Assembly: GCA_963814275.1 (NCBI GenBank)
Contig: CAWFCE010000002.1
Span: forward strand, 1,195,263 to 1,259,262
DNA: 64,000 nt
From: Candidatus Parcubacteria bacterium
GTDB taxonomy: Bacteria; Patescibacteriota; Patescibacteriia; Patescibacteriales; UBA12075
Direction: 5' to 3'
Shown: one piece after another, positions 24,920-41,205 of the stretch
Position numbering within the stretch: the first letter of the stretch is position 1
How the letters are laid out: each line of letters opens with the position of its first letter
Notes under the pieces: generated by a model
What the model was told of the DNA's origin: nothing
Database searches by the model: none
Seen by the model: only the letters and a program-made list of their open reading frames with translations
Translations under genes and position numbers: made by a program

Positions 24920-25780
24920 TTATAATAAATCCCCGATTTCGTCAAATTTATTTACTGCAACTTTAGTATAAATTTGAGTGGTTTCCAGGCGAGCATGGCC
25001 CAGCAAAGACTGAATATATCTTAAGTTTACACCATTTTCTAAGAGGTGGGTAGCAAAGCTGTGGCGCAATGAATGAGCAGAAACCCGTTTTTTGATCCCG
25101 GCCCGATTTGCGGCCTCGGTGACAATTTTCTGGATGGTCCGAACCGTCAATTTCCCGGCCGAACGGAAGCTTTCGAACAAGAATTCGGCCGGATCATAGC
25201 CGCGGATGTATTGCCCGATGTTTTCCAACACTGTCCCGGACACGATCGTCACCCGGTCCTTGTTGCCCTTGCCGGCCTGGATCCGGATTATTTTTCGGTC
25301 AAAGTCGATATCATAAACCCGCAAATTCACAAGTTCGCTCACCCGCATGCCGGTGGTATAAAGCACCTGGATGATGAGTTTATGTTTTATATTTCCTGCT
25401 ACCTCTATCATCCCAATGATTTCTTTTTTCGCCAGCACAACCGGTATCCTGGAGCCCATTTTGGGCCGCTTGATCCGGATTTCCCCGGCAAAAAAATTCC
25501 TCTTTAAAATTTGCGTGTAATAGAATTTAATGGCGTTGATCGCCAGGTTCAAGGTCGCCGGCGCCCGGCCGCTCACCAGAAGCCAATCCAGATAATCTTT
25601 TATATCCTGCGCGTTTAAATCATCGCTGAATTTGTTTGCAAATCTAAGCAATTCCTTGGTATAATAAACATAAGCCTTTACCGTTTTTTGGCTATAATTC
25701 CGTATTCTCAATTCCTGCTCCAAGTTATAAAACAAATCCCTTTTTAAAGTAGTAGAACGATTTAAATCTGATGGTAGCAT
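24920..25780 (-). CDS. tyrosine recombinase, integron-integrase-like N-terminus but Xer-sized (array 1 recombinase)
   Basis: 286 aa. SAM-like core-binding domain (IRNYSQKTVKAYVYY..., RIPVVLAKKEI); catalytic set TGMRVSE, GKGNKDR, HSLRHSFATH, LLGH, QIYTKV. It is divergent from and 78 bp away from the first GTTRRRY site. Confidence 0.85.
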   Translation of the reverse strand: MLPSDLNRSTTLKRDLFYNLEQELRIRNYSQKTVKAYVYYTKELLRFANKFSDDLNAQDIKDYLDWLLVSGRAPATLNLAINAIKFYYTQILKRNFFAGEIRIKRPKMGSRIPVVLAKKEIIGMIEVAGNIKHKLIIQVLYTTGMRVSELVNLRVYDIDFDRKIIRIQAGKGNKDRVTIVSGTVLENIGQYIRGYDPAEFLFESFRSAGKLTVRTIQKIVTEAANRAGIKKRVSAHSLRHSFATHLLENGVNLRYIQSLLGHARLETTQIYTKVAVNKFDEIGDLL

Positions 25781-25902: not shown

Positions 25903-27126
25903 TTGGGGCAAATTTATTTTTTTTATGAATATGAAGAAAAAATTCAAAAACCAACTCCTGAAAACAATCAAGAGTCACAAGCTGATATTTTACCTGAAAC
26001 ATACACCAAAGCCCGCACTCAAGAGATTAATCAGCAAATTAATTCATATCAGGGACCAAAAAACTCTGTAGATTTGGTATCCAAAACCAAAGAGATACAA
26101 GAAAACTACAAGCAATACATGGAAGAATCAGATGCTGAAGGAAGCCAAGAAACATTACAGCTTTTTCAAAAAAAAATGCAGGCAGAGATTGATTTCTATA
26201 AAAAAGAGTTTGATAAATTTAATGATCTGCAAAGGCTAGAAACCGTCTCTAATATATTAAAACCAGAAGATTTTCAGCTCTATGAAAAAATTCTAGGCAA
26301 CAAGGAAGGAAACACAGATGATTTATTTGATTCCCGCGGTAAAGTAATTCACGCCACAAATTCAACTGCACTAGATATAATATCTGATGTTAATACAATT
26401 TCTGGAGGAACAAGGCAGCTTGGACCTTCTTTCTCTGACGGAGATCACGACATCGCAATCACTTTTAATCTTGTGTGGGAAAAATTAAAAACGCCAGGAG
26501 GCATAGATAAAACCCACAAAAAAATTGACCTTGATGAATATCCACAATTCCCCAGTAAATATAATGAATTTGTTGATTGGGCAGTGCAAAGATTAAAAAA
26601 TGAATATGGCGAGGGAGAAAAGTTTGAAATGGAAAAAAACAAACTTCTTGCAAAAGCTGAAAAACATAACGAAGATAAATCAGTCCTCCACGATACTGAA
26701 GAACAGTACACTCAAGAATTAAAAGATATGGCATATGGCACGCTTAAACCGAAGTGGATAAAAGACGGGCTTAGCGAAGAAGAAGCTGAAAATAAAGTAA
26801 AAGAATATATTGAAAATCAAAACCATTTTAAAAACAGGCTAAAAAACCGACCTCAAAATGAAGTAGCCTTCCCTGTTACACTTGCATTTATTAAAAATGA
26901 GCTACCTGAACTTGTGCCTGAAGGTGGTGAAAGAGAATTTGAACTAAGAACAGAAGAAGAAATTAAGCTTGATAATGCCTCTACCATATTTGTTCCTGAA
27001 AAATATCTAAATAGCAGACTTGTTAGAAAAATAAATCAGGTTTATCCTAATATAGACATAAGAACAGAGGAGGAGTTGGAATTTGTAAGAATGAATAAAT
27101 TATTAAATAAAATAAATTTGCCCTAA
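25903..27126 (+). CDS. hypothetical Lys/Glu-rich protein (cassette 1)
   Basis: 407-aa ORF. Start uncertain: the TTG at 25903 lies inside the cassette inverted repeat and the first in-frame ATG is at 26119. Confidence 0.5.
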   Translation: MGQIYFFYEYEEKIQKPTPENNQESQADILPETYTKARTQEINQQINSYQGPKNSVDLVSKTKEIQENYKQYMEESDAEGSQETLQLFQKKMQAEIDFYKKEFDKFNDLQRLETVSNILKPEDFQLYEKILGNKEGNTDDLFDSRGKVIHATNSTALDIISDVNTISGGTRQLGPSFSDGDHDIAITFNLVWEKLKTPGGIDKTHKKIDLDEYPQFPSKYNEFVDWAVQRLKNEYGEGEKFEMEKNKLLAKAEKHNEDKSVLHDTEEQYTQELKDMAYGTLKPKWIKDGLSEEEAENKVKEYIENQNHFKNRLKNRPQNEVAFPVTLAFIKNELPELVPEGGEREFELRTEEEIKLDNASTIFVPEKYLNSRLVRKINQVYPNIDIRTEEELEFVRMNKLLNKINLP

Positions 27127-27162
27127 TAATAACTCGCTTCGCTCGTTGAATTTAATTACATC

Positions 27163-27254
27163 ATCTAACAGCGTGTATACGGTTCGCGCTTGGCTATCGC
27201 CAAATGCTCACCCAAATTTGCTTCGCAAACTTCGTATACACACGAACGTTAGGC
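27163..27254 (+). repeat. attC-like site 1
   Basis: R'' ATCTAAC (27163-69) is the reverse complement of the upstream GTTAGAT. It is followed by stem GTGTATACG / CGTATACAC, GGTTCG, hairpin H1 TTGGC-TATC-GCCAA, CACCCAAATT, hairpin TTTGC-TTCG-CAAA and ACTTCG. R' is GTTAGGC (27248-54). Confidence 0.75.
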
Positions 27255-27318
27255 GCAACAATAAAAAGCCTCTTTAATTAATTTAATAATTTTGGCAATT
27301 TATTTGCCCAATAAAACT

Positions 27319-27702
27319 ATGATAAAACCAGACCAAAATTTAGGAAAATTTTTTTCCAAAGAAGACCAATCCATTGAAAAGGAAACTGATTTAAAACAAC
27401 TTCAAGATTTCGCCGTATTATACCATGAAAAAAACATGCCTGAAGATCAGGAGAAAAAATTTATTTCATTGGCGCAAAAATACATAGACGAGAATCATGA
27501 TGGAACATACTATAATGAAGGCAATACAGATTATATTTATGTGCAACTTCCAAACGGACTATACTTAGAAGCTGATGCACATCTCAGAAGTAACACCTTT
27601 TATTTTTCCGGAGTACTATCAAAAGAAGATGCAGAAAAAAGAATAGACATGTTAGCAAAACAACGGGAAGAAGATATAAAAGCAGCTTTAGATAAAGAAT
27701 AA
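27319..27702 (+). CDS. hypothetical protein (cassette 2)
   Basis: ATG at 27319. The track start at 27292 reads through the cassette inverted repeat. 127 aa. Confidence 0.5.
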   Translation: MIKPDQNLGKFFSKEDQSIEKETDLKQLQDFAVLYHEKNMPEDQEKKFISLAQKYIDENHDGTYYNEGNTDYIYVQLPNGLYLEADAHLRSNTFYFSGVLSKEDAEKRIDMLAKQREEDIKAALDKE

Positions 27703-27842
27703 ACAAATTGCCAAAATTAATTTAAATAGCGGAGGAGGCTTTTTATTACTCGCTCCACTCCGTTCCGCGCCGCGCTGCGCTCTCACCCTCAAATTTTATG
27801 ATTATTAACTTTAATAAGGTATAAAATTTGAGTCTTCGGGGC

Positions 27843-27941
27843 GTATAACAACGCGATATACGGTTCGGCCCTCGGCCCGGGCCTCACCCAAATTGCAATC
27901 CCCTTCGGGTCTTGCAACTTCGTATATCGGTGATGTTGTGT
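27843..27941 (+). repeat. attC-like site 2
   Basis: Degenerate R'' GTATAAC; CGATATACGG / CGTATATCGG stems; GGTTCG; H1 GGCCC-TCG-GCCCGGGCC; CACCCAAATT; H2 GCAATCCCC-TTCG-GGTCTTGC; ACTTCG. R' is GTTGTGT (27935-41). Near-identical to site 14 except for H2. Preceded by an extra hairpin module at 27749-27842. Confidence 0.7.
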
Positions 27942-28006
27942 GAAATAATTAAATTATTTTTGCTCCGCAAAAATTGTTAGGGCAAATTTATTTAATCTTT
28001 AATCTT

Positions 28007-28456
28007 ATGAAACTCTATCATGGTTCACCAAATAGTTTTGATACAATTCGTAAAAGTCAGGCGCAAGCAGGTGATGATATTAAAGTGCCAGATGATGAAT
28101 TATTAAACGCGATTTATTTAACCCCAAATTATGAATTTGCTTTGGCCATCGCTTCGATGCCGGAAGGTGCTGCCAACATCGACAATGAAACCAAAACAAT
28201 CAAGTTTGAAAATCCTGAAGCATTCGACCCAGAAAAAGAAGTTTATATTTATGAAGTTGATAGTGAATTAATCCCGAAAGAAAATTTAAAAGAAGTTGAC
28301 GAGCTTCAAATTGCGATTTTAAACACCGATGAAATAAAGCCAACAATAAAACATGTTTGCAAAGCTGGTGATGTTGAGAAATATTATGAAATAAAAAAAG
28401 AAATTTTAGAGGCTAAAAACGAAACTAAAATATCACCTGAGTTCAAGATTAAATAA
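28007..28456 (+). CDS. hypothetical protein (cassette 3)
   Basis: ATG at 28007 (MKLYHGSPNSF). The track start at 27974 lies in the inverted repeat GGGCAAATTTATTT. Confidence 0.5.
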   Translation: MKLYHGSPNSFDTIRKSQAQAGDDIKVPDDELLNAIYLTPNYEFALAIASMPEGAANIDNETKTIKFENPEAFDPEKEVYIYEVDSELIPKENLKEVDELQIAILNTDEIKPTIKHVCKAGDVEKYYEIKKEILEAKNETKISPEFKIK

Positions 28457-28500
28457 ATTTGCCCTAACAACTCGCTATCGCTCGTTAATTTAATTACATC

Positions 28501-28627
28501 ACACAACACCGCGATAAACGGCTCGGTCTTTATTCAAAGACCTCGCGCAAATTTCTGTTTTCTCTTTTGTGATTAATTTAATAATGTAGAGAAGACAGAA
28601 ACTTCGCTTCATCGGGAAACATTATGT
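28501..28627 (+). repeat. attC-like site 3
   Basis: R'' ACACAAC is the reverse complement of the upstream GTTGTGT. CCGCGATAAACGG / CGCTTCATCGGG stems with conserved bulges; GCGCAAATT; long H2 with an ATTAATTTAATAAT loop; ACTTCG. R' is ATTATGT. Confidence 0.72.
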
Positions 28628-28686
28628 GAAATATGTTTTTACTCTTGGGCTAACGCCCCAACTTTTATATAATAAATTTAATTTTT

Positions 28687-29136
28687 ATGAATAACCTAAA
28701 ATATACGAAACCACTAAACATTTTTTTGCTTTTAGTAGCTATTGTCTTATTAGCTGGTTGCTCAAATAAATATTTTGAAAAAAATTTGGAGTGCGAGAAA
28801 CAAAAAGACATGCTTCAATACAACAGCGATAATTACAGCAAGGATACCAACACAATTATCAGTAAAATTCAAAAAGTATTTTACAGTCCAAAAGCAAAAA
28901 AATGTTTGTATGTTAGTGTCTCTGCAATCGATTTTAATTCGCCTAATAATATGACTGCTCTAACACAGAAAGACTATTCAGACGGAGCAAGATGGAAGCT
29001 CCGGACAATTTCAGGCGAATTAGTTGAAGATTTGCTAATTAACACTGAAGATGAAAAAATGGCTGTTTTTGGAGCAGAGCCACAACATACAGATTCATAT
29101 GAAGAATTTGAAAACCTTGTTAAAAAATGGGAATAA
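28687..29136 (+). CDS. putative lipoprotein (cassette 4)
   Basis: 149 aa. Signal peptide with lipobox LLAGC. Confidence 0.55.
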   Translation: MNNLKYTKPLNIFLLLVAIVLLAGCSNKYFEKNLECEKQKDMLQYNSDNYSKDTNTIISKIQKVFYSPKAKKCLYVSVSAIDFNSPNNMTALTQKDYSDGARWKLRTISGELVEDLLINTEDEKMAVFGAEPQHTDSYEEFENLVKKWE

Positions 29137-29200
29137 AAAATTAAATTTATTATATAAAAGCAATTCCGCATAAGCGGAATTAAGAGCAAAAACATACATC

Positions 29201-29657
29201 ACATAACAATGAATATGCGGTTCACAAATTAAAAATTATTCCTTATAATTATCAAAATATATGAAAAAAATATTAGTATTCGCGGTCGTTGTCTTGTTAA
29301 TAATTTTAGTGTTTAGCTGGTGGAATAAATCCCCAGAAGCTACATGGCAGGGTTCCTATTACAAACACGGACAACAAGAAAACGAAGTGTATGGACCAAT
29401 TTTTACTAATTTTGATGGCTGTAAAGCGTGGGCATTAGGAAAAATAGTTTATAACGACGACACAGCTAACTGTAGTAAAAATTGTCATGACGCTTTGGGA
29501 GACGGCACCCCTGTGTGTGAGGAAGTTGTTAGAAATTGGGCACCGCTTCCGGGCAGTTACACTTTTGATAATTATAAGGAATAATTTTTAATTTGTTCAC
29601 CCAAATTTTTGTTCCGCTTCGCTACACAAAAACTTCGCATATTCATAAACGTTAGGC
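29201..29657 (+). repeat. attC-like site 4, split by a nested cassette (29225-29595)
   Basis: R'' ACATAAC matches the upstream TTATGT. L'' AATGAATATGCG (29208-19) pairs with L' CGCATATTCAT (29636-46). The insert is flanked by GTTCAC (29220-25 and 29595-600) and sits immediately 5' of CCAAATT. R' is GTTAGGC (29651-57). Confidence 0.72.
29261..29584 (+). CDS. small secreted/TM-anchored Cys-containing protein (nested cassette)
   Basis: 107 aa with an N-terminal hydrophobic helix. The ORF is bracketed by a perfect 32-bp inverted repeat (29225-29256 / 29564-29595), whose right arm encodes the last 6 codons plus the stop. Confidence 0.55.
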   Translation: MKKILVFAVVVLLIILVFSWWNKSPEATWQGSYYKHGQQENEVYGPIFTNFDGCKAWALGKIVYNDDTANCSKNCHDALGDGTPVCEEVVRNWAPLPGSYTFDNYKE

Positions 29658-29689
29658 GAAATAAATTTTTCGCTACTAATTTTAAACAT

Positions 29690-30283
29690 ATGAAAAAATT
29701 CTTTTTGGGCTTCGCAAGCTCGTTATTAATCACAATTCCCCTGATCGCTTTTTCTGCTGATTCACTGTCTACAAAACTAAAAGGAAAAATTTTGTTAGCA
29801 GTAGAAGATAAGGGTAAAACTTATTATGTCAATGAAGATGGAAACAGATACAGAATTACTGTTTCTACTGCACAAAAAATATTTGAAAAACTTGCATTGG
29901 GCATTACAAATGAAAATTTAAGTCAAATTCCAGAAAGTAACGTAGGTATCGACCCAGAAGAAAACAGCACCCAGGAAAATTGTGCTGCGCAAGAATCAGA
30001 ATTAAATGATTGGAAGAATTTGAATACAAAAAATGAAAATACCCTCAGTTCTTGCCTTAACACCCTCACTAGCTTGAAGGATTCTTATGCAGACCTAATT
30101 AACAAATACGAAGATTGCATAGGTGAGTGCAATTATGGCCCTACAGTTGATGCACTCATCGCCCAAAATAACGAGCTTGCTAAACAAAATGATGAACTTT
30201 TAGCTATATCTATTTACTGGGAAAATAGTGCTAACACATGGAAGGCTTACGCATATGGTTGCACTGGCTATACTAGTCAATAA
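29690..30283 (+). CDS. secreted protein with KGKILLxVExxGxxYYV motif (cassette 6)
   Basis: ATG at 29690 (MKKFFLGFASSLLITIPLIAFS signal peptide). The track start at 29609 reads through attC-like site 4. Confidence 0.55.
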   Translation: MKKFFLGFASSLLITIPLIAFSADSLSTKLKGKILLAVEDKGKTYYVNEDGNRYRITVSTAQKIFEKLALGITNENLSQIPESNVGIDPEENSTQENCAAQESELNDWKNLNTKNENTLSSCLNTLTSLKDSYADLINKYEDCIGECNYGPTVDALIAQNNELAKQNDELLAISIYWENSANTWKAYAYGCTGYTSQ

Positions 30284-30336
30284 AATTAGTAGCGAAAAAT
30301 TTACTCAAGGGTTCGCTCCTTGAATCCGCTCACCTC

Positions 30337-31028
30337 GCCTAACGCGGCGTATCTGGCTCCGCTGGCCGTAAAATAATTAATTTTTTTATGACGATATTAA
30401 AGCCCAGAAATAAACCTGGCTCAAATAGTTTGCAAAACAGATTAGGTGGAGCAGTTTATAATTTTCTGGACAAAGCAAAAAATAATGATAAATTTTTGTT
30501 AGACTACGAAAGGATTAAAGGTAAATGTACCTCTGGCAATTGGCAAATTAATGATTATTCTCCAATACTTTTGCCATTGGTTAAATACTATGAAAATAGC
30601 TTGTGGTTTATTTGTGATAAATTAGGCATATTTAACCAGATTAATGACGGCAAAAAACCCCATAGCTTAAGGGCATTTTTCGACACAAAAGAAACAGAAA
30701 TAAATATTTGGCTTTCTTCAAAAATTAATGATAATCTTAAATATAAAAAATTGTCCAGAAAATTATTTTCAACAATCGACGATTATGTTCAGAGAAATGA
30801 AGTTGTTCATTGCAACGAAATCATATCCTTTCCCGATTTGAGCAATTACGATAGTTTGCTTACTAAATTAAAAGAATTAGTTGAACTTTTATTTAATCAC
30901 AATTTATTACAAAAAAATTAATTATTTTACTAGCTCCGCCCAAATTTCGTTTCCGCTTTTTGTTGGCGCATCCGCGCAATTATAACAAAAAGCTACAACG
31001 AAACTTCAGATACGCCGAAATGTTATCG
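30337..31028 (+). repeat. attC-like site 6, split by a nested cassette (30363-30932)
   Basis: R'' GCCTAAC is the reverse complement of the upstream GTTAGGC. L'' GGCGTATCTG (30346-55) pairs with L' CAGATACGCC (31007-16). The direct repeat GCTCCGC occurs at 30356-62 and 30933-39, the latter abutting CCAAATTT. R' is GTTATCG (31022-28). Confidence 0.72.
30388..30921 (+). CDS. hypothetical protein (nested cassette)
   Basis: 177-aa ORF flanked by the 20-bp inverted repeat GTAAAATAATTAATTTTTTT (30368-87 / 30911-30). Confidence 0.5.
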   Translation: MTILKPRNKPGSNSLQNRLGGAVYNFLDKAKNNDKFLLDYERIKGKCTSGNWQINDYSPILLPLVKYYENSLWFICDKLGIFNQINDGKKPHSLRAFFDTKETEINIWLSSKINDNLKYKKLSRKLFSTIDDYVQRNEVVHCNEIISFPDLSNYDSLLTKLKELVELLFNHNLLQKN

Positions 31029-31120
31029 GAAATAAATTTTTTATCTTGGTGGTAATTTCAAGGTTTGCGCGTTTTGCCAAGACGAAAATTTGATTTTTTA
31101 TTTTTTAAAGAGGGGTAATT

Positions 31121-31609
31121 ATGAAATTAACCAAAGAAACTACCTCGGAAAAACTTCTTGATTTTGGCAAACAGATTTTCGAGATTTTACAAAGACTAGA
31201 TACCTCACCAATCGTTTACGGTAGTTTGGCATATTTTTATCATACGAAAGATACTAGTTTCCCGATTAGAGACATTGATTTGCTTTTGCCAGAATCAAAT
31301 TTTTCAAAAATATCTGAAATGCTCGACAAAGAAAAAAATGTCACATACAATGTGATGCCATATCATAGTATAGAGGTATTCAGAGACGGTCTCGAAATCG
31401 ACATCGATTCTATCGAACATTTTTTAGATCCGAGATCTAGAGAATTTCATAAATCAACGATAAACGACCTCGATTTGAATATTTTAAATAAAGAGTCCTT
31501 GGCAAGCATTTACAAAGAAGCCTTGGATAACATGCCGCAAGAGAAAAAACTCGATGAAAAAAGAAATAAGTATCAAAAGAAGTTAGACAATCTCCAAAAA
31601 TTACTTTAA
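31121..31609 (+). CDS. hypothetical protein, possible minimal nucleotidyltransferase fold (cassette 8)
   Basis: 162 aa with SD AAGAGGGG. YGSLAYFYH...IRDIDLLLPE resembles the GS...DxD motif of Pol-beta-type nucleotidyltransferases; this is a weak call. Confidence 0.4.
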   Translation: MKLTKETTSEKLLDFGKQIFEILQRLDTSPIVYGSLAYFYHTKDTSFPIRDIDLLLPESNFSKISEMLDKEKNVTYNVMPYHSIEVFRDGLEIDIDSIEHFLDPRSREFHKSTINDLDLNILNKESLASIYKEALDNMPQEKKLDEKRNKYQKKLDNLQKLL

Positions 31610-31734
31610 TAAGGAGTTTTTATTTTTGGCCATTCACCCCTACCCCTCTGGCCAAAAATAAAAACAAAAAATCAAATTTTCTTTTAACGTAGAAAAGCTA
31701 TCGGCCAGTAGCATGGAGATAAAAAATTTACATC

Positions 31735-31921
31735 CGATAACACGGCACATGCGGTTCAGAAATTTCTCGTTTTTTAGACTTTTCAATTAAGGTATGAGAA
31801 ATTTCCTCTCCCAAATTGCGCTGACTATATGGAAAGTTTAGTGGTATAATCAAGTTAAGCGATAATCAATAATTTTATCAATAAATAACGGCGCAACTTC
31901 GCATGTGCCGATACGTTAAAT
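31735..31921 (+). repeat. attC-like site 8
   Basis: R'' CGATAAC is the reverse complement of the upstream GTTATCG. GGCACATGCGG / CGCATGTGCC stems; GGTTCA; H1 GAAATTTCTC...GAGAAATTTC; CTCTCCCAAATT; long H2; AACTTCG. R' is GTTAAAT (31915-21). Confidence 0.72.
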
Positions 31922-32016
31922 GAAATTGGCTAATTGTTTAGTGTACACCATAGATGACACTATAGTGTACACTAATGTGGTAAATCAAAGTTAATCGCGA
32001 GCCAACTTCACTTAAC
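31916..32016 (+). other. conserved ORF-less cassette, copy 1 of 3
   Basis: GAAATTGGCT...TTAATCGCGAGCCAACTTC-ACTTAAC with internal palindrome TAGTGTACAC-N16-GTGTACACTA. Homologous copies are at 59441-59542 and 61297-61396. Confidence 0.6.
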
Positions 32017-32534
32017 AGGTGATATGCGGTTACAATTAAGGAAATATAGAATATAATTTTTACTAAAAAAATCCCCACGAACTGAATCGCAGGGACACGT
32101 TGGTTTTAGTCCATCTTTGGAAATTACACAATAAGGATTTTTGCTCTGCCTTCGACATTGTGAAAACCGATAAACACAGTATTGCGTCCGGTTTCCTTTA
32201 AACGTTTCAATGCTAACACGGCAGCTTCGGTACCAACGGTTTTTTCAAAATCTGATATGAGCTTTATGGCATCATCAATCGGATAATCATCAACTTCCAC
32301 TCCAACCATTGGTCCGTGCTTTTCTGGGTCATATTCTGATATCGGCGCTGTCTTTAATTCCATATTCCCTCCTTTTTATGAATTGTTGCTAGAAACTTAG
32401 CACGTGAATGCCAAAAACGCAAGTAAAAATTATTTTCTATATTTCTTTAATCTCCACCCAAATTCCTGCCCCTCTTTTTAGGATAAATTAATAATGAGTC
32501 GGGGCAGAAACTTCGCATATCAAAAATGTTAGGC
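32010..32534 (+). repeat. attC-like site 9, split by a nested reverse-oriented cassette (32034-32451)
   Basis: R'' ACTTAAC. L'' GGTGATATGCG (32018-28) pairs with L' CGCATATCA (32513-21). ACCCAAATT and the H2 stem CCTGCCCC...GGGGCAG follow. R' is GTTAGGC (32528-34). This is a paralog of the array 2 site at 59536-60215. Confidence 0.7.
32124..32363 (-). CDS. hypothetical 79-aa protein (reverse-oriented nested cassette)
   Basis: Strong SD (AGGAGGG) 7 nt upstream of the ATG on the minus strand. The cassette is bounded by a roughly 29-bp inverted repeat (32034-63 / 32423-51). Confidence 0.55.
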   Translation of the reverse strand: MELKTAPISEYDPEKHGPMVGVEVDDYPIDDAIKLISDFEKTVGTEAAVLALKRLKETGRNTVFIGFHNVEGRAKILIV

Positions 32535-32559
32535 GAAATTTATTTTCAATTTAAAATTT

Positions 32560-33396
32560 ATGAGTTCGGATACTATAACCAATTACTACGATTACACCCT
32601 GCCATTTTATAGATTTTTTTATCACGGCAAGAGCAATGCCGTTCATTATGGCTTTTGGAACAATGGAGTTAAAAATCACCAGGAAGCTTTATTGAACGTA
32701 AATAAATTTTTGGCTGACACGGTTAAGATAAAATCAGATGATAGTGTTTTAGACGCGGGTTGCGGAATTGGAGGTAGCGCGATTTGGCTGGCACAGAATT
32801 ACAATGTTCGAGTTGATGGCATAACCATAAGTGAAAAACAGTTAGAGGAAGCCAAAAATTTATCTACCAAATATAATGTTGACCATATCGTAAATTTTTA
32901 TCAAAGAAATTTTTTAAATACCAAATTTAACGATAGTTCCTATAACATAGTTTTGGCGATTGAAAGCGTGTGCCATGCCGAGAACAAAAAGGACTTTATC
33001 AAAGAAGCGTACCGGGTACTTAAAAACGGCGGACGATTGATTGTTGATGATGGATTTCTTTTGCGAAGTCCGAAAAATAAACACGAGCAAAAAGATTTAA
33101 ATGCATTTTTAGAGGGCATGGCACTCTCCAATCTTGCTTTTGAAACAGACTTTAAAAAATCTCTTGAAGATGTTGGATTTAAAAATATAAAAATTTACGA
33201 CAAGGTCAACGAAACGATTCCTTCTTCAAAAAAAATCTATAAAATGTCAATTTTTAGTTATCCTTTATCTATAATTCTCGAAAAACTAAAACTTACACCA
33301 CCATTATTAACCAAAAATAATTTAGCGGGAATAACACAATACAGGATAATTAAAAATGGGATAATGGGACACCGAGTATTTTACGCTGAAAAATAA
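32560..33396 (+). CDS. class I SAM-dependent methyltransferase (cassette 11)
   Basis: 278 aa. Motif I VLDAGCGIGGSAIWLA; post-I and motif II/III spacing (LKNGGRLIVDD). Confidence 0.8.
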   Translation: MSSDTITNYYDYTLPFYRFFYHGKSNAVHYGFWNNGVKNHQEALLNVNKFLADTVKIKSDDSVLDAGCGIGGSAIWLAQNYNVRVDGITISEKQLEEAKNLSTKYNVDHIVNFYQRNFLNTKFNDSSYNIVLAIESVCHAENKKDFIKEAYRVLKNGGRLIVDDGFLLRSPKNKHEQKDLNAFLEGMALSNLAFETDFKKSLEDVGFKNIKIYDKVNETIPSSKKIYKMSIFSYPLSIILEKLKLTPPLLTKNNLAGITQYRIIKNGIMGHRVFYAEK

Positions 33397-33419
33397 ATTT
33401 TAAATTGAAAATAAACATC

Positions 33420-33573
33420 GCCTAACACCGCGATAAGCGGCTCCAGAAAAGTTCCTTAATTAAATATAATAATGAGTAAACTTTTCTTCCGACCCAAATT
33501 TCTATTTTTCTTTTCTTATTAATTTTAATATTGAAAAAAAATAGAAACTTCGCTTCATCGGGAAACGTTGTGT
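33420..33573 (+). repeat. attC-like site 11
   Basis: R'' GCCTAAC is the reverse complement of the upstream GTTAGGC. CCGCGATAAGCGG / CGCTTCATCGGG stems; GGCTCC; H1 33445-87; CCCAAATT 33493-500; H2 33501-45; AACTTCG 33546-52. R' is GTTGTGT (33567-73). Confidence 0.75.
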
Positions 33574-33639
33574 GAAATAATGTCCTTAAACAAAATATTT
33601 TAGGTGGTGCTAATTCAAAAGAAAAAGGAGGGAGGTATT

Positions 33640-33852
33640 ATGGTAATCATCAATAAACTTGGCAGATTATTAAAAGACCATTCAGAAACTTTTATTCTTT
33701 TTTTAGCGGGTATAATATTAACCCTATACGGGATTTTGAAAGCATTGCCTTTTATTGATTGGGCGCAGAAAGGTCAATTTTCGAGTGAGTTTACTATTTT
33801 ACTTGGAATACTTCTGCTATTCTTTGGACTTCGTTCATTATTAAACAAATAA
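33640..33852 (+). CDS. small two-TM membrane protein (cassette 12)
   Basis: ATG at 33640 preceded by AAGGAGGGAGG. 70 aa. Confidence 0.55.
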   Translation: MVIINKLGRLLKDHSETFILFLAGIILTLYGILKALPFIDWAQKGQFSSEFTILLGILLLFFGLRSLLNK

Positions 33853-33955
33853 ATTGATTATTCTCGCGGGGAACACTTTCCCCGCACCACCTAAAATATT
33901 TTGTTAGCTTCTATTCAGAAGCTGTTTGCTCAATCGCAAACAAGGACATTACATC

Positions 33956-34073
33956 ACACAACAACGCGACAAGCGATTCGGTCTTTATTCAAAGACCTCA
34001 CTCAAATTTTTGAAATGATTATTAACTTTAATAATGAATTTCAAAAACTTCGCTTCGTCGGTATACGTTATAT
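33956..34073 (+). repeat. attC-like site 12
   Basis: R'' ACACAAC is the reverse complement of the upstream GTTGTGT. H1 GGTCTTTATTCAAAGACC; CACTCAAATT; H2 TTTGAAATG...ATTTCAAA; ACTTCG. R' is GTTATAT (34067-73). Confidence 0.72.
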
Positions 34074-34090
34074 GAAATTAAAAATTCCCT

Positions 34091-34603
34091 ATGAGCATTA
34101 AACAAGATTGGAAAAGTCCCAAAGTTGATATAAAAGATAGTCCGATTGGAGGAAAAGGCATTTTTGCTAATTCCAATATTAAACGAGGTGAAAAAATCAT
34201 CGTCTGGGGAGGAAATTATACTGATGCTGTTGGTGCGCAAAAAGCAAAAGAAAAAGGTATGCTAGTATTTCAATGGGACGATGACCTTTATAGCTACGAA
34301 GATAGAGGGAAAGACGATGGGTACTACATAAACCATTCCTGTAACCCTAATCTATGGATGACAGATGCATACACTTTAACAGCTATGAGAGATATTAATG
34401 CTGGTGAAGAAATTACAATAGATTATGCGTTGTTCGAGGAAGATGATTATATTTCAAAATGGAAATGCAACTGCGGTTCATCGTTATGCCGCGGCCGGGT
34501 TACAGGAGAGGATTGGAAAAGCATAGTGCTACAAAAACGCTATAAAGGACATTTTTCACCTCTCTTAAATAAACGGATCCAGAAATTACAAGATAATAAA
34601 TAA
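34091..34603 (+). CDS. SET domain protein (cassette 13)
   Basis: 170 aa. YINHSCNPN and EEITIDY SET motifs plus the post-SET CNCGSSLCRG. Confidence 0.8.
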   Translation: MSIKQDWKSPKVDIKDSPIGGKGIFANSNIKRGEKIIVWGGNYTDAVGAQKAKEKGMLVFQWDDDLYSYEDRGKDDGYYINHSCNPNLWMTDAYTLTAMRDINAGEEITIDYALFEEDDYISKWKCNCGSSLCRGRVTGEDWKSIVLQKRYKGHFSPLLNKRIQKLQDNK

Positions 34604-34627
34604 TTCACGGCGGGAATTTTTAACATC

Positions 34628-34772
34628 ATATAACACCGCGATAAGCGGTTCCAGAAAATTTCCTTTATTAATGATAATAATGAATAAAATTTTCTTCCAC
34701 CCAAATTTTGCAAATGAATATTAATTTTAATAAGGTATTTGCAAAACTTCGCTTCATCGGGAAACGTTAGGC
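34628..34772 (+). repeat. attC-like site 13
   Basis: R'' ATATAAC is the reverse complement of the upstream GTTATAT. Same family as sites 3, 11 and 17. R' is GTTAGGC (34766-72). Confidence 0.75.
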
Positions 34773-34800
34773 GAAATAATTTATCAATAATTAAATTTCT

Positions 34801-35150
34801 ATGGGAATAGACAACAAGCCTTTTACGGCAGAGCAACTCCAGGAACAGATTAATTTTTTTGGAATTGATTGCACTGTAAAAAAACACCTGGAGAAAAATA
34901 TATATTTTTTAGTTGTGACTCTATGGAAGACGCGGAATCAATAGTAGTAAGTTTTTGGGGAAAAAGAGATCAATCAGTTGTTGACGGCCTTAACCGAGGC
35001 ATGCTAAAACCTAGTCATGAAATTACTACAGGTGCCAGAACGGAAATCACTGAAATCGGAGGCAAAGCAACATTAATTATTAGTGAAAACGGTGCTCCAC
35101 TTTCGGAAAAAACAATTTCAGCATTAGAAGATGGAGGATTTACAATTTAA
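34801..35150 (+). pseudogene. hypothetical cassette gene with a frame break at an A7 run (cassette 14)
   Basis: The ATG at 34801 opens MGIDNKPFTAEQLQEQINFFGIDCTVKK. After the A7 run (about 34877-34883) the reading continues in another frame as TPGEKYIFFSCDSMEDAES... to 35150; one extra A would fuse the two frames. Alternatively an intact ORF could start at ATG 34923. Confidence 0.4.
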
Positions 35151-35232
35151 TTATTGATAAATTACTCAAGGGGGCGCTGCGCTTCAGGTCTGCCTTTTAC
35201 AATTAATAATATTGAGAGCAGACCTGACCCTC

Positions 35233-35331
35233 GCCTAACAACGCGATATGCGGTTCGGCCCTCGGCTCGGGCCTCACCCAAATTTTCTTTCACTTCGTTC
35301 AAGAAAACTTCGTATATCGGTGATGTTGTAC
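35233..35331 (+). repeat. attC-like site 14
   Basis: R'' GCCTAAC is the reverse complement of the upstream GTTAGGC. Near-identical to site 2 apart from H2. R' is GTTGTAC (35325-31). Preceded by a hairpin module at 35165-35232. Confidence 0.75.
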
Positions 35332-35359
35332 GAAATAAAAATTTAATTATTTTGCTACC

Positions 35360-36079
35360 ATGAAATTCAAGGAAGCATACAAACACATAAACCCCACCGA
35401 ATACATAAATATTTTTTCCAACCCTCAATGGTATTTGGAAATACAAGCTGAACTAAAGGATTTTTTTTATGATTATGACGGCAATAAGGATAACAAATCG
35501 CAAGAATGGCTTGAAAAAAGGAAAGAATTTGTAAAAATGGTTTGTGAACTTTTAGAAGCTGGCAAAGTTGCTCTTGGCGACTCTGGTATAAACTGGGATA
35601 AAGACCGTTTACCCATAGATACAATTGTTATACATCATACGAGCACGCCATCAGACACCCCCGTTATAGCCATTGATGCACTGGGATTGATTCGTTTGTA
35701 TGCACCGAATTACAGCAAAAAAAATGAGGAGCAATTTGGCCAGCCAATATGGTCAAACCATTTTTGCAAAAATCAACAAACATTCGTTGCTTATCATTAC
35801 ATAATCAGACAGGATGGTTCTTTTGAACACATATTACAAGATGACCAAATAGGTTGGCATTGTGGCAATTGGGATTATAACTGCAGAAGTATTGCGATTT
35901 GTTTTCTTGGTGATTTAAAAGAAAAAAAACCGACTGAAAAAGCACTTCAAACGGCGAATGAAATCATAAAAAAATATCCAAATTGTAATATATTCGGTCA
36001 TAGAGAAATTAAACCCACAACAACTTGCCCAGGTAATCTGTTTCTAGGGAAAGAGGGTTGGAAAACGACATATTTCTAA
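35360..36079 (+). CDS. N-acetylmuramoyl-L-alanine amidase (amidase_2/PGRP fold) (cassette 15)
   Basis: 239 aa. IVIHHTSTP...AYHYIIRQDG...GWHCGNWDYNCRSIAICFLG...GHREI...TCPG. Confidence 0.75.
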   Translation: MKFKEAYKHINPTEYINIFSNPQWYLEIQAELKDFFYDYDGNKDNKSQEWLEKRKEFVKMVCELLEAGKVALGDSGINWDKDRLPIDTIVIHHTSTPSDTPVIAIDALGLIRLYAPNYSKKNEEQFGQPIWSNHFCKNQQTFVAYHYIIRQDGSFEHILQDDQIGWHCGNWDYNCRSIAICFLGDLKEKKPTEKALQTANEIIKKYPNCNIFGHREIKPTTTCPGNLFLGKEGWKTTYF

Positions 36080-36107
36080 GAACGCAAAATAATTAAATTT
36101 TTACATC

Positions 36108-36186
36108 GTACAACACTGAATATCTGGTTCCGTTATCGCTCCACCCAAATTGCTGACGCAACTTCAGATATTCAGAAACGTTATCG
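36108..36186 (+). repeat. attC-like site 15 (shortest, 79 bp)
   Basis: R'' GTACAAC is the reverse complement of the upstream GTTGTAC. CTGAATATCTGG / CAGATATTCAG stems; GGTTCC; CCACCCAAATT; hairpin GCTGACGCAA; CTTCAG. R' is GTTATCG (36180-86). Confidence 0.75.
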
Positions 36187-36253
36187 GAAATATTGCTCAT
36201 TAAAATATTTTTTTGTAAGAGGGCTTGAAATTAACTATCAAAGGAGGATTGTA

Positions 36254-36544
36254 ATGAAGAAAAAATCTTTACACAACGTTGGAGATTTGGTCGTATTTAA
36301 TGAAACCAAAGAATTTGGGAACAAAAATGACCGTATATTTCACATCCACGCCATTCGATATGGCAAATGCACTGGAATTCCTAAAAAACAATATTGGTTC
36401 GCTGGTTTCCTGCTGGAAATTGGAAAACACGAGAGTGAGGGTTTACCTCAAATTCCAGTTTTTGCAACAACCTTAACCAACGCTTCCGAAAATCAATTGA
36501 GTTCATTAGAGCATCTACAATGCCGTTTCAACCCATGGAAATAA
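36254..36544 (+). CDS. hypothetical protein (cassette 16)
   Basis: 96 aa. SD AAAGGAGGA upstream of the ATG. Confidence 0.5.
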   Translation: MKKKSLHNVGDLVVFNETKEFGNKNDRIFHIHAIRYGKCTGIPKKQYWFAGFLLEIGKHESEGLPQIPVFATTLTNASENQLSSLEHLQCRFNPWK

Positions 36545-36651
36545 TCTACGCCCTTTGTCTTCGCGGGAATAAACAATATTCCCGCCCTCTTTTCAAAAAA
36601 ATATTTTTGCTGGCTTATCAGCCAACGGCTATCACTAATGAGCAATATATC

Positions 36652-36759
36652 CGATAACAGCACGCTATCCGGTTCGCGCTTGCCCTGTCGGGCAAATGCT
36701 CACCCAAATCCCGACTCCGATTCACTACATCGGGACTTCGGATATCGGCATATGTTATG
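36652..36759 (+). repeat. attC-like site 16
   Basis: R'' CGATAAC is the reverse complement of the upstream GTTATCG. Family shared with sites 18, 23 and 24 (GCACG.TATCCGG ... CCGATATC). H1 stem TTGCCC/GGGCAA. R' is GTTATGT (36753-59). Confidence 0.75.
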
Positions 36760-36815
36760 TGAAATTTAAGTTGTGGCCTTAATTAAATTTAATATATTCA
36801 ATAACTTCTCTCTTA

Positions 36816-37208
36816 ATGATAAAACAAGTTTCATTGTTAATATTATTTGATAAAGATAAGCGCATTTTATTGCAACATCGTTCCGAAGATCAAGAAGGAT
36901 TACCTGGCTATTGGGCTTTTTTTGGTGGTCATATTGAAAACGGCGAAACACCAGAGCAGGCATTACTGAGAGAGTCTGAGGAGGAATTAGAGTATATGCC
37001 GGAAAACCCCCGCCTAGTTATGACTCAGGATTTTATGCACGACAATATACGACATAGAAAATACGTTTATTTAGAGGAATATAATAACAGCAAACTTGTT
37101 CAACACGAGGGTCAAGCTATGGGATGGTACCATTTAGGCGAAATACAAAAATTAAAAATGGTAGACCACGACCGAGAAGTTATTGATTATATTAAAAACA
37201 AATATTGA
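36816..37208 (+). CDS. NUDIX hydrolase (cassette 17; duplicated at 60271-60663)
   Basis: 130 aa. Nudix box [23 protein letters not shown]. Protein sequence identical to the array 2 copy. Confidence 0.85.
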
Positions 37209-37227
37209 GTGCCACAACTTAAACATC

Positions 37228-37433
37228 ACATAACACCGCGATAAGCGGCTCCAGAAAATTTTCTTTATTAATATTAAACAGGAATAAAATTTTCTACCGG
37301 CCCAAATTTCATTTCAGTTTTCTGATGAACGTTCAATAAACGTTCATCGCTCCACGATTGTCTGATATTGATAATAATCGATTCTAAAACGGAAAACTGA
37401 AGTGAAACTTCGCTTCATCGGGAAATGTTAAAT
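37228..37433 (+). repeat. attC-like site 17 (206 bp)
   Basis: R'' ACATAAC is the reverse complement of the upstream GTTATGT. Long branched H2. R' is GTTAAAT (37427-33). Duplicated with the NUDIX cassette in array 2. Confidence 0.72.
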
Positions 37434-37497
37434 GAAATATCTAAAACAAATTCCCTATCGGGAATTTTATCTGCAAGTTTATAATTAATTTTCTTAT

Positions 37498-38160
37498 ATG
37501 AAAAACAAATTTTTTTTACTATTAATCTTAGTCATTATCTTAGCTGGGTGCAATAAACAAAACACAAGTATTAATTTAACCCCAGATAATCAAACTAAAA
37601 ATATTTCAAACTCAACAAACGATACTAATACATCAATACAGGAAAACGTAGAAGCAAAAAACAATATTCCCGAAGAAAAACCAACAGAAATTAAGCAAGA
37701 AGACGATATAAAAATACAAAATATTAATAATAAAAAAAGTTATCAAAATTTAACAACTGGGTTTAGCTTAGAATTTCCAGAGGCATTAATATTCAGGAAT
37801 AACGCTTTTTACACCGAGGTAAACTGGGACGGTATTGTAAATAAAAAAACTGACCATATGTACGTTCCTGAATTTACTGTCCGTTTTGCATCTGATGTGT
37901 CATTAGATGAATTTATTTATAATTCGATTAACCCAAATTATAAAAATCATTTTAATTCAAACAAAAACAAAATCAAAGAACAAAAAACAATAGGAAATAA
38001 TAAATTCTTTATGATAAACAGTAAAAATTTTGATAGCAATGGTTGTAGTTACTATATAGAAAATAATAAAAATATAATGAGATTAAGTACCGCATATAAC
38101 TGCGGTGAAAACGAATTAATAGAAAACGTTTTGATATCTATTAAAACAACAGAAAATTAA
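37498..38160 (+). CDS. putative lipoprotein (cassette 18)
   Basis: 220 aa. Signal peptide with lipobox ILAGC; Asn/Lys-rich. Confidence 0.55.
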   Translation: MKNKFFLLLILVIILAGCNKQNTSINLTPDNQTKNISNSTNDTNTSIQENVEAKNNIPEEKPTEIKQEDDIKIQNINNKKSYQNLTTGFSLEFPEALIFRNNAFYTEVNWDGIVNKKTDHMYVPEFTVRFASDVSLDEFIYNSINPNYKNHFNSNKNKIKEQKTIGNNKFFMINSKNFDSNGCSYYIENNKNIMRLSTAYNCGENELIENVLISIKTTEN

Positions 38161-38212
38161 TTATAAACTTGCAGATTATTTTTGCTATCGCAAAAATGGT
38201 TTTAGATACAGC

Positions 38213-38318
38213 ACATAACAGCACGATATCCGGTTCGCGCTTTCCTTCGGAAAATGCTCACGCAAATCCCGACTCCGTTTCACTGCGTCGGGACTTCGGA
38301 TATCGGCATACGTTAGGC
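38213..38318 (+). repeat. attC-like site 18
   Basis: R'' ACATAAC has 2 mismatches to the upstream GTTAAAT. Paralog of site 16 with a compensatory H1 stem TTTCC/GGAAA. R' is GTTAGGC (38312-18). Confidence 0.68.
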
Positions 38319-38347
38319 GAAATTTAAAATTTATCTTTATCTCAATT

Positions 38348-38638
38348 ATGTCATTAAACAAACTAAAACATTTTAAAAAACCTTGGGTAATTGGTCTTAT
38401 TGTTGGTATAATCCTAGCCATCGGAAATATATTACTTGCCGGAATTCCAGGGATTATCTTATTTGAAAACACTTTAGATCCGGTACAATCAATTTCTGGT
38501 TGTGCAGGAGAAGACTGTTGGGGTCCATCTGCACTTTATGGTAGTGTAATTTTCTTAATTGTCGGGTTTTTATTTGGTTACCTTGTTGGAATATTTATAA
38601 ATAGATCCTTGAGCAAAGTAGATAAAGATAAATTTTAA
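38348..38638 (+). CDS. small membrane protein (cassette 19)
   Basis: 96 aa, 3 TM helices. The 3' end (GATAAAGATAAATTTTAA) is part of the cassette inverted repeat. Confidence 0.5.
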   Translation: MSLNKLKHFKKPWVIGLIVGIILAIGNILLAGIPGIILFENTLDPVQSISGCAGEDCWGPSALYGSVIFLIVGFLFGYLVGIFINRSLSKVDKDKF

Positions 38639-38712
38639 ACTCAAGGGGGCGCTGCGCTTTCGTCCCGCCCTTTGAATAATATAATTTAATATTGTAGGCG
38701 TGACGAACCCTC

Positions 38713-38811
38713 GCCTAACACCGAGTATACGGAAAAAGGCTCAACTCGCCTTTTTCCCAAATTCGCCTTCGTTTCACTCCGGCGAACTTCGTATACTCGG
38801 AAACGTTATCG
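38713..38811 (+). repeat. attC-like site 19
   Basis: R'' GCCTAAC is the reverse complement of the upstream GTTAGGC. CCGAGTATACGG / CGTATACTCGG stems; H1 AAAAAGGC...GCCTTTTT; CCCAAATT. R' is GTTATCG (38805-11). Preceded by a hairpin module at 38640-38712. Confidence 0.75.
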
Positions 38812-38845
38812 GAAATTACACTTTTTAAAAAATAATTTTATTATT

Positions 38846-39511: not shown

Positions 39512-39589
39512 TAATAAAATTATTTCTTTATTTGGGCTATTCGCCCAAATGTCCTTCCCTATCGGTCAGGACTAAAAAGTGTAACTGTC

Positions 39590-40325: not shown

Positions 40326-40398
40326 GAAATAAATAAATGCTTTTCGGCTAACGCCGAAAAATTATTCGGGCAAATATTTATTATTCAATACTAAAAGA

Positions 40399-41187: not shown

Positions 41188-41205
41188 CAATTAAACGGTT
41201 TTATT

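Follow-up and report, generated by a model that had tools for sequence, protein, structure and literature searches.

Complete genes nested within attC-type sites in two cassette arrays of a Parcubacteria genome

The 64,000-nucleotide stretch of DNA analysed here (the window), from contig CAWFCE010000002.1 of a Candidatus Parcubacteria bacterium, contains two arrays of short plus-strand open reading frames (ORFs), at about 27160-42970 and from 59348 to the window end, with a GC content of 33% against about 47% in the flanks. Between the ORFs of both arrays lies a repeated structured element resembling the attC recombination site of integrons, and the resulting units are mostly single-gene, co-oriented cassettes. 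Directly upstream of each array is a divergent, minus-strand gene for a tyrosine recombinase, which gives the integron arrangement of a co-oriented cassette array beside a divergent integrase gene. At three places the attC-type site is split by a gene-bearing segment flanked on both sides by the 7-mer GCTCCGC or a near copy of it, and these three split sites are the subject of the present analysis. Two arrays with Xer-like recombinases and canonical R''/R' boxes are thus found in a single 1.27-Mb Patescibacteria contig.

The cassette arrays and their split sites

The left part of the element consists of the R'' box (RYYYAAC), a spacer of 2-3 nucleotides (nt), a variable L'' box, GGYTCS, a hairpin designated H1, YTCVC and CCAAATT, and the right part of a second hairpin designated H2, AACTTC, the L' box, which complements L'', a 5-nt spacer and the R' box (GTTRRRY), followed by GAAATAAAT. 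The spacers are asymmetric, with 2-3 nt on the R'' side and 5 nt on the R' side. Among 20 unsplit sites, AAC and GTT are unchanged in all 20, and the L stem shows compensatory changes at 7 of 8 pairs with 96.9% of cells paired, the combination of R''/R' boxes and paired but sequence-variable L''/L' boxes by which attC sites are recognised. All three split sites studied possess these boxes. Their L stems are perfect or contain 1 mismatch (the L''/L' pairing of site 3 has one), and bulges are present in the CGATAAGCG/CGCTTCATCGG class. The base of H2, which reads G.T on the bottom strand and A.C on the top strand, is a possible strand marker. An Rfam scan of the window returned no intron or other RNA family, and no tRNAs were found in it.

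The segments splitting the three sites (site 1, 30337-31028; site 2, 39757-40325; site 3, 61390-61775) measure 268-570 bp and contain one ORF apiece, encoding 177 amino acids (aa) with a weak HEPN-like match in site 1, a 141-aa NUDIX protein in site 2 and 52 aa in site 3. Each segment ends in a perfect inverted repeat of its own, of 20, 16 and 24 bp respectively. The split always falls between GGCTCCGC and GCTC(C/T)GC-CCAAATT, and CCAAATT stands directly 3' of the right 7-mer in all three sites. The initial annotation, which had described three split sites with inserts and GCTCCGC flanks, a GCTCTGC variant at the right of site 3 and a separate inverted repeat for each insert, was confirmed in these positions and sequences. 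GCTCCGC occurs 12 times in the window against 5.5 expected, with 5 of the 12 at these junctions, and CCCAAATTT 14 times against 2.3 expected. Recovery of sites 1 and 2 in separate Logan assemblies (L001, L002) rules out an artefact of assembly; exact-protein look-ups with the genes of both sites yielded only contigs of the same sample with the same arrangement.

About 6 of the roughly 28 sites in the window carry a nested gene, comprising the three studied sites and three with other flanks at 29201-29657, 32010-32534 and 59536-60215, and at all six the gene lies complete within the H1 loop. Sites 32010 and 59536 have the leader, R''-L'' and H2-L' in common while their arms and genes differ. 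The leader, about 90 bp long, also precedes site 3; each copy fills the normal gene position of a cassette and is followed by a split attC that bears the gene. It is composed of GAAATTGGCTTCAC, an inverted repeat TAGTGTACACCATAG/CTATAGAGTACACTA and GAGCCAACTTC, with further sequence between them, and is also found in locus L203 (reverse-complement coordinates 14131-14212). Scanned for promoters and terminators, the leader copy at 61303-61389 and site 3 gave no match, and that leader copy had no sigma-70-like promoter. Site 2 begins about 30 nt after the preceding R' (39722-39728), which makes it a cassette without any gene outside its attC. The coordinates of all features are collected in Table 1.

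Table 1. Recombinase genes, split sites and associated elements, in window positions
Feature	Position	Strand	Description
Tyrosine recombinase 1	24920-25780	-	Divergent from array 1; Xer/XerA-like, without the IntI-specific insertion
Split attC	29201-29657	+	H1 base GGTTC..TCACC; 34-bp perfect arms 29224-29257/29563-29596; ORF 29261-29584 (107 aa)
Site 1, left half of host attC	30337-30355	+	R'' GCCTAAC 30337-30343, 2-nt spacer, L'' GGCGTATCTG 30346-30355
Site 1, left GCTCCGC	30356-30362	+	5' strand of H1 base; with G30355 forms GGC-TCC-GC
Site 1, left H1 arm	30368-30387	+	20-bp inverted repeat GTAAAATAATTAATTTTTTT; compensatory change relative to L208
Site 1, cargo gene	30388-30921	+	177 aa, weak HEPN_RiboL-PSP match; last four codons within right arm
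Site 1, right H1 arm	30911-30930	+	Other copy of the 20-bp inverted repeat
Site 1, right GCTCCGC	30933-30939	+	3' strand of H1 base
Site 1, junction and H2	30940-31006	+	CCAAATT 30940-46, H2, AACTT 31002-06; AACTT/AAATT pair forms H2 base
Site 1, right end	31007-31028	+	L' CAGATACGCC 31007-16, 5-nt spacer, R' GTTATCG 31022-28
Split attC	32010-32534	+	79-aa ORF 32124-32363 on minus strand
Site 2, left half	39757-39775	+	R'' ATCTAAC, L'' TGTGTAACTG
Site 2, left GCTCCGC	39776-39782	+	Final GC already within the long stem
Site 2, left H1 arm	39781-39802	+	Repeat GCTAAATAAATAATTT: 16 bp perfect (39781-39796), 22 bp with 1 mismatch
Site 2, cargo gene	39809-40234	+	141-aa NUDIX hydrolase
Site 2, right H1 arm	40228-40249	+	Begins with GAAATAAAATT; perfect 16 bp at 40234-40249
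Site 2, right GCTCCGC	40248-40254	+	7-mer match
Site 2, right end	40255-40325	+	CCAAATT, H2, AACTT 40299-40303, L' CAGTTACACA 40304-13, R' GTTAGAT 40319-25
Tyrosine recombinase 2	57970-58782	-	Divergent from array 2; 40% identical to the first
Split attC	59536-60215	+	177-aa NUDIX gene 59588-60121; 30-bp arms with 1 mismatch
Gene-less leader	61303-61389	+	Between preceding R' and site 3 R''; copies 31922-32009, 59447-59535
Site 3, left half	61390-61408	+	R'' ACTTAAC, L'' TGTATATACG
Site 3, left GCTCCGC	61409-61415	+	7-mer match
Site 3, left H1 arm	61421-61444	+	24 bp; kept in L203 with one compensatory change
Site 3, cargo	61445-61664	+	Shine-Dalgarno, 52-aa ORF 61464-61622, GC hairpin 61644-61664
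Site 3, right H1 arm	61665-61688	+	Pairs with the 24-bp left arm
Site 3, right 7-mer GCTCTGC	61691-61697	+	GCTCCAC in the L203 ortholog
Site 3, right end	61698-61775	+	CCAAATT, H2, AACTT 61750-54, L' CGTGTATACA, R' GTTAATC 61769-75
Extra GC-rich modules	27740-27842, 35170-35232, 38650-38712, 59290-59347, 62085-62243		Resemble H1/H2-type modules outside the attC proper

GCTCCGC as the base of H1 in a three-way junction

The initial annotation interpreted the paired GCTCCGC copies as a duplication, the 7-bp overlap region of a tyrosine recombinase reaction. A metagenome collection was scanned for the right junction GCTCCGCCCAAATT, and the counts that follow are among the at least 120 matches listed. 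A loose filter for the right half of attC was passed by 12 of them, 9 being true family sites and 3 chance matches in GC-rich DNA. Seven of the nine true sites are unsplit, and in these the left copy, identical or nearly so, lies a few nucleotides upstream. Exact two-copy unsplit sites, with copies 3-8 nt apart, are L086 (GGCTCCGC-TATC-GCTCCGC-CCAAATT), L150 (spacer TTC) and L198 (spacer AACATGTT); close variants are L183 (GGCTTCGC-TAC-GCTCCGC), L104 (GGCTAAGC-ATC-GCTCCGC), L090, L132, L197 and window site 36108 (GGTTCCG-TTATC-GCTCCAC). None of the 27 GGCTCCGCCCAAATT occurrences among the matches listed is a single-copy, "empty" attC. Because both copies pre-exist in unsplit sites, insertion did not make the pair. 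A recombinase overlap would stand as one copy in an unoccupied target and would be flanked by conserved inverted binding arms around 6-8 bp; these unsplit sites have two copies, and the arms differ in every insert.

The two copies pair with each other instead. The base of H1 is formed by GGC/GCC closing pairs, a 3x3 pyrimidine internal loop (TCCxTCC) and then GC/GC, and because GC is self-complementary and the internal loop is symmetric, the two strands read as a direct repeat. The GCTCCGC copies are the two strands of the H1 base and belong to the site at any H1 length, be it 16 nt or 600 nt. The conserved motifs make up the core of a three-way junction between the R/L stem, H2 (CAAATT/AACTT) and H1 (GGY/RCC with the pyrimidine loop), and the right 7-mer abuts CCAAATT because the H1 and H2 arms meet there.

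Covariation supports this architecture. The third base past L'' and the base before CC (GGY..RCC) form a Watson-Crick pair in 31 of 42 sites, or in 35 when a bulged A is allowed (permutation p = 5e-5), the 31 pairs being T:A in 15, C:G in 15 and A:T in 1. Across the 20 unsplit sites, the proposed structure leaves 92.6% of cells paired against 76.9% after shuffling (reached in 0 of 500 shuffles), with a covariation score of 0.451 against 0.155, and sliding the partners by 1-3 columns reduces pairing to 17-47%. Both-sided changes occur at 15 pairs, the R and L pairing covaries, and the closing pair of H1 is UA in 9 sites, CG in 8 and AU in 1. At the H2 base CAAATT pairs with AACTT, which on the bottom strand becomes AAGTT/AATTT with an invariant G.T, a mismatch (A.C) on the top strand. 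Bottom strands were more stable than top strands in all three sites folded. The bottom strand of L150 folds as GGC-GGA-GC-GAA-GC-GGA-GCC, and minimal H1 loops on this strand are GAA, GTA or GATA. When the bottom strands of sites 2 and 3 are folded as DNA, pairing spans the insert and includes the R and L boxes, H2 and the long repeat (z-scores of -4.8 and -8.2). The GC hairpin in site 3 was also considered as a mini-attC and rejected, as it has no flanking R boxes.

Nested genes, their turnover and alternative explanations

H1 falls into three size classes, of 16-30 nt, 51-82 nt and, with a gene, 265-600 nt. The longest perfect stem rises with H1 length (Spearman 0.89), from a median of 5 bp in 29 short sites to 20 bp in 11 long ones (at least 150 nt, almost all gene-bearing as seen), and gene-bearing H1 stems reach 12-34 bp of perfect pairing against the usual 2-11 bp. 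The arms are unrelated between inserts, have no terminal motif in common and begin at a variable distance from the 7-mer, about 0-5 nt on the left and 0-3 nt on the right. Searches for the arm sequences elsewhere in all the DNA examined yielded only AT-rich chance matches. L''/L' pairing across the insert is perfect or has 1 mismatch in 8 of 10 split sites. The split sites in the window contain inserts without a transposase, an attC of their own or a conserved arm terminus, and their cargo consists of two NUDIX proteins, one weakly HEPN-like protein and small proteins without a family match.

The arms and their cargo can be compared across related loci. The closest relative, L203, has a recombinase 74% identical to that of the window and a syntenic flank. 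Its ortholog of site 3 is 93-100% identical over most of the leader, R'', L'', the 7-mer, both arms, H2, L' and R', the 5' part of the leader being only about 60% identical, whereas no alignment is possible over the 220-260 bp enclosed by the arms, and the small proteins are unrelated. By this comparison, the gene in the loop can be replaced while the host site and arms stay. The arms themselves change in a compensatory manner, from AGAAAGC/GCTTTCT in the window to AGGAAGC/GCTTCCT in L203 (A.T to G.C), and from A.T to T.A at site 1 between the window and L208. The initial annotation regarded the inserts as nested, exchangeable units; the nesting is real and the content turns over, as the L203 ortholog and sites 32010 and 59536 illustrate, but the genes lie within an expanded arm of the attC and not between crossover cores. 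Its stated refutation was that the copies would simply be part of the conserved GGYTCS/YTCVCCC motifs, with no sign of inserts ever being gained or lost; the copies do belong to these motifs, yet evidence of gain and loss exists.

Homologs of the site 1 gene in L206 (64% identity) and L208 (59%) show the same nesting, with homology spanning R'' to R', so the unit from R'' to R', gene included, is inherited as a block in other genomes. The idea that L208 contains this nested unit within another host attC was rejected, because alignment showed the host sites to be homologous apart from a 31-nt hairpin indel in H2; L208 therefore provides no evidence of hopping. Other homologs lie outside such units. 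Those of the site 1 gene in L207 and L209 and those of the NUDIX gene in L211 and L212 occur in ordinary gene clusters with no attC around them, while the NUDIX homolog in L210 occupies the canonical cassette position after an unsplit attC.

The structure of the arms bears on their origin. At sites 29201, 30337, 39757 and 59536 the right arm contains the stop codon and the last 2-7 sense codons of the gene. The right arm of site 2 starts with GAAATAAAATT, the last codons, the stop and four bases, which is common to attC-less homologs and hence ancestral, so that it is the left arm that holds a reverse-complement copy of the gene's end; the inner 11 nt of this left arm are the reverse complement of the cargo gene's own 3' end. 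As the stem is partly a copy of the gene's 3' end, this suggests that it was made or lengthened after capture, by fold-back synthesis, hairpin correction or selection. In another metagenome contig, L159 (1290-1380), a minimal attC-like hairpin stands directly after greA, with R'' GATTAAC, a stem of 8 bp capped by a TTC loop and R' GTTATCG; of the two paralogous small genes that follow it, one occupies the canonical position, and its paralog is nested in H1 of the attC belonging to that cassette.

The explanation favoured here, with a probability of roughly 0.7, is that the three loci are integron-type attC sites of a mainly Patescibacteria family, in which the gene is housed in an expanded H1 and GCTCCGC forms the H1 base. 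When the DNA becomes single-stranded, the long H1 stem would zip and join the two attC halves; the joined attC could then be recombined at the R box by the neighbouring Xer-like recombinase, as for any cassette, and the gene would travel within its recombination site and not beside it. In known attC sites the variable terminal structure can be as small as a GAA triplet or as large as a branched structure of 65 nt, and one can replace the other with little effect on recombination (PMC2727003), which makes the H1 region a place likely to tolerate extra DNA. Ordinary shuffling apparently operates in these arrays, as shown by a single example: cassette 34743-35348 is 95.9% identical to L203rc 12207-12814, its neighbours differ, and homology begins and stops at R'.

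Several points weigh against this explanation. Recombination of the sites, single-stranded or at all, is presumed, and the recombinases do not have the insertion by which integrases of known integrons recognise the folded attC, so a different pathway may apply. The attC-plus-gene unit of site 1 lies behind three unrelated upstream ORFs (window 30283-30337, L206 859-880, L208 2392-2455), which crossover at R' alone does not predict; R''-side (top-strand) crossovers, cassette fusion or homologous exchange may account for it. No orthologous pair of an occupied and a short-H1 site was found among the loci compared, and gain and loss are deduced from replacement alone. The thermodynamic fold of site 3 turns each 7-mer into a mini-hairpin and does not pair one with the other, and the three studied sites show no evident extrahelical bases of the kind typical of attC. 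The metagenome sample, picked by the right-hand 14-mer and comprising the matches listed only, introduces a bias in the C:G class and narrows the search for single-copy sites.

How genes come to lie in H1 can be proposed tentatively. Loop capture, a possible though doubtful birth route of new cassettes, would place an operon gene in the H1 loop of a gene-less attC element, making it mobile at once; hosts could be elements such as 39729-40325 or leader-plus-attC units, and the closing stem would then be lengthened by fold-back copying of the gene's 3' end.

Four other explanations were weighed against the housing of the gene in H1. The model of the initial annotation, in which the inserts are small cassettes that enter empty sites by double-strand tyrosine recombination across GCTCCGC, draws on the identical 7-mers at the same position of three unrelated host sites, the adjacent recombinase genes and the changing content at the 7-mer position between related sites. 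It is already largely refuted and highly improbable, since unsplit sites have two copies with no single-copy attC target among the matches listed, the arms beside the 7-mer are unrelated and variably spaced, and the 7-mer positions covary as a helix; moreover, other split sites use GGTTC..TCACC, GTTAC..CTCCAC, ACTGC..TCCGT or no motif at all (L013), and the boundaries of exchange between L203 and the window lie at the inner arm ends, about 30 bp from the 7-mers. Transposons classically show inverted repeats at their ends beside a flanking direct repeat, and a gene for an IS200/IS605 transposase is located close to one related array (L210). That the inserts are small non-autonomous elements, resembling miniature inverted-repeat transposable elements or attC-targeting relatives, with GCTCCGC as target-site duplication, is nonetheless hardly credible: the "duplication" is present without an insert and was not made by insertion, the arms differ in every insert, so that family ends are lacking, and include cargo coding sequence, no insert encodes a DDE transposase or a reverse transcriptase/maturase of the kind carried by IS1111-attC elements and group IIC-attC introns, and no copies occur outside attC sites in the DNA examined.

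The two remaining alternatives concern the halves of the site. H1 could be a second, inner recombination arm, with crossover near the outer stem end or with cassettes entering the H1 loop as a secondary site. At sites 1 and 3 the left side reads GGCTCCGC, a 5-nt spacer and GTRAAAT, and the right side ATTTYAC, a 2-nt spacer and GCTCYGCC, a layout similar to an L box and an R box (GTTRRRY/RYYYAAC, 6/7 matches) with an unpaired spacer between them, the asymmetry of 5 against 2 nt recalling the unpaired central spacer. By eye, the left ends of four nested units look like the GAAATAAAT leader that follows every R', and hosts 32010 and 59536 differ from just past L'' to just before CCAAATT. Yet the R-like arm ends are confined to sites 1 and 3 and their homologs, being missing in the other split sites (29201, 32010, L159, L181, L013), and have GTG or GTA in place of the invariant GTT; no nested unit has its own attC, unlike a normal cassette inserted at a secondary site, and the L203 pair keeps its arms with only the interior changed, all of which renders this explanation unlikely. 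Alternatively, each locus could be a composite, a former ordinary cassette between two attC sites whose inner halves were both lost and whose remaining halves happen to pair. The poor L''/L' pairing in L208 (7/10) and L206 (8/10) fits such an origin, as do the L210 NUDIX homolog, which follows an R' leader without an attC of its own, and the nested left ends that look like canonical leaders. Two independent sites would not be expected to give L''/L' pairing as good as that of 8 of the 10 split sites, however, two precise mirror-image deletions would be needed every time, and neither the long perfect arms nor the left arm's copy of the 3' end of the gene would be explained, so a composite origin is very unlikely.

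Recombinases, neighbouring features and known systems

The closest relatives of the recombinases, at 57-74% identity, belong to Patescibacteria (Falkowbacteria, Parcubacteria and similar). Aligned with archaeal XerA (4a8e), the match is full-length, whereas alignment with IntI4 (2a3v) breaks into two stretches, query 183-213 standing opposite IntI4 172-244, so that about 40 residues are missing at the IntI-specific insertion; the IntI-specific domain around patch III is absent. The score against TIGR02249 (integron integrase) is 208.8, below the cutoff of 265 and in two stretches, and that against NF040815 is 249, above the cutoff of 220. A scan of a genome collection with an integrase alignment returned, among the matches listed, relatives of at most 47% identity, few of which had this attC family. 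Because the recombinases align with XerA and do not possess the IntI insertion, the arrays qualify as integrons by their attC sites and array organisation and do not qualify by their integrase. Similar proteins of candidate phyla form a Xer-related "Cand" subgroup assumed to act as Xer (PMC8138268), and a survey of archaeal integrons listed 6 integrases for 539 attC sites (PMC9668308). Near the end of a related array, L210 2539-2663 encodes an IS200/IS605-type Y1 transposase, a transposase of single-strand hairpins.

Further features accompany the arrays. The first ORF past the recombinase, at 25903-27126 (+), encodes a 407-aa Glu/Lys-rich protein without a Pfam or NCBIfam match, and the first attC then follows at 27163. 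NUDIX cassettes recur at 39809-40234 and 59588-60121 (Pfam matches) and at 36816-37208 and 60271-60663 (NUDIX-like by sequence only), and NUDIX genes also adjoin the recombinase in the related loci L204 and L205. Cassette 36816-37433, a 130-aa ORF with its attC, appears to be duplicated in array 2 at 60271-60888, given near-identical flanks and equal ORF lengths. H2 at 37302-37405 and 60757-60860 is 105 nt long and branched (hairpin, GCTCCAC, hairpin), repeating the H1/H2 design one level down. Medium-sized H1 and H2 loops (33455-33475, 34660-34685, 34715-34735, 62300-62320) contain the AT-rich motif TTAATTAAT..TAATAATGAGT or TAATAAGGTAT in one orientation, which might bind a protein, act as a signal for translation or be left over from lost cargo. 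In several cassettes extra GC-rich modules, GCGCTGCGCTYTC with a hairpin and in some cases with CTCAAATT or a CCAAATT box, occur just 5' of R''. At the end of array 1, degenerate sites at 41920-42047 and 42822-42970 keep CCAAATT, H2 and AACTTC but have poor left halves and GTTCAG as R', and a minus-strand ORF of 160 aa (42272-42754) lies between them.

An integron cassette consists of a gene followed by its attC, and the origin of this joining is a long-standing question. In about a fifth of the cassettes described here the attC itself houses the gene, within the loop of one of its structural arms, and the presence of the same gene families in ordinary operons and in canonical cassettes provides concrete candidate intermediates for gene-attC joining. 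If loop capture is true, Xer-type arrays of Patescibacteria would show directly how genes acquire attC, and they may represent an integron lineage that works without the IntI-specific domain. The sites further indicate that a loop of some 600 nt is compatible with a structure-specific recombination site if the closing stem is lengthened, which is useful for the design of synthetic attC sites. They also indicate that where a direct repeat borders a hairpin, it may represent both strands of a symmetric internal loop and not a target duplication. Tools that require the IntI domain would call such arrays integrase-less; with arrays lying beside recombinases devoid of that domain, which is considered essential for reading folded attC, integron-like capture in candidate phyla may be under-counted. 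A literature search, with most subscription journals outside its reach, returned no report of genes inside attC or of integrons in Patescibacteria.

Comparison with known systems places these sites closest to integrons, with partial resemblances elsewhere. In dif, loxP, phage att sites and the Xer-dependent pdif modules of Acinetobacter plasmids, a Xer-family recombinase likewise stands beside modules bounded by sequences in inverted orientation. Such sites are short and double-stranded, with a pair of binding arms flanking an overlap of 6-8 bp and one copy per partner, whereas here unoccupied sites already have the supposed overlap in two copies, which behave as a helix. IS1111-attC elements and group IIC-attC introns also break attC with foreign DNA. 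They encode their own transposase or reverse transcriptase and have ends common within the family, whereas the inserts here encode a cargo gene only, have unique arms and lie within the loop of a structural arm. The ORF in domain IV of group II introns and the homing endonuclease ORFs of group I introns are genes in a peripheral loop of a fold, an analogy showing only that a fold tolerates a gene in the loop of a peripheral helix if the helix closes; those are splicing RNAs, here a single-stranded DNA is presumably read by a recombinase, and there is no homology. With classical integrons the arrays have in common co-oriented cassettes beside a divergent tyrosine recombinase, boundaries at R' and a variable region above the L stem, dispensable in the integrons where this was tested, and differ in a recombinase without the IntI-specific insertion and in their Patescibacteria hosts. 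The Vibrio cholerae repeats, attC sites with a large branched terminal structure, have the same order of R'', L'', L' and R' and an asymmetric unpaired spacer, and small classical attC sites end in GAA loops like the minimal H1 loops found here. Unlike classical attC sites, those of this family are built around a three-way junction with the conserved core GGY/RCC and CAAATT/AACTT, one arm of which holds a complete gene of up to about 530 bp.

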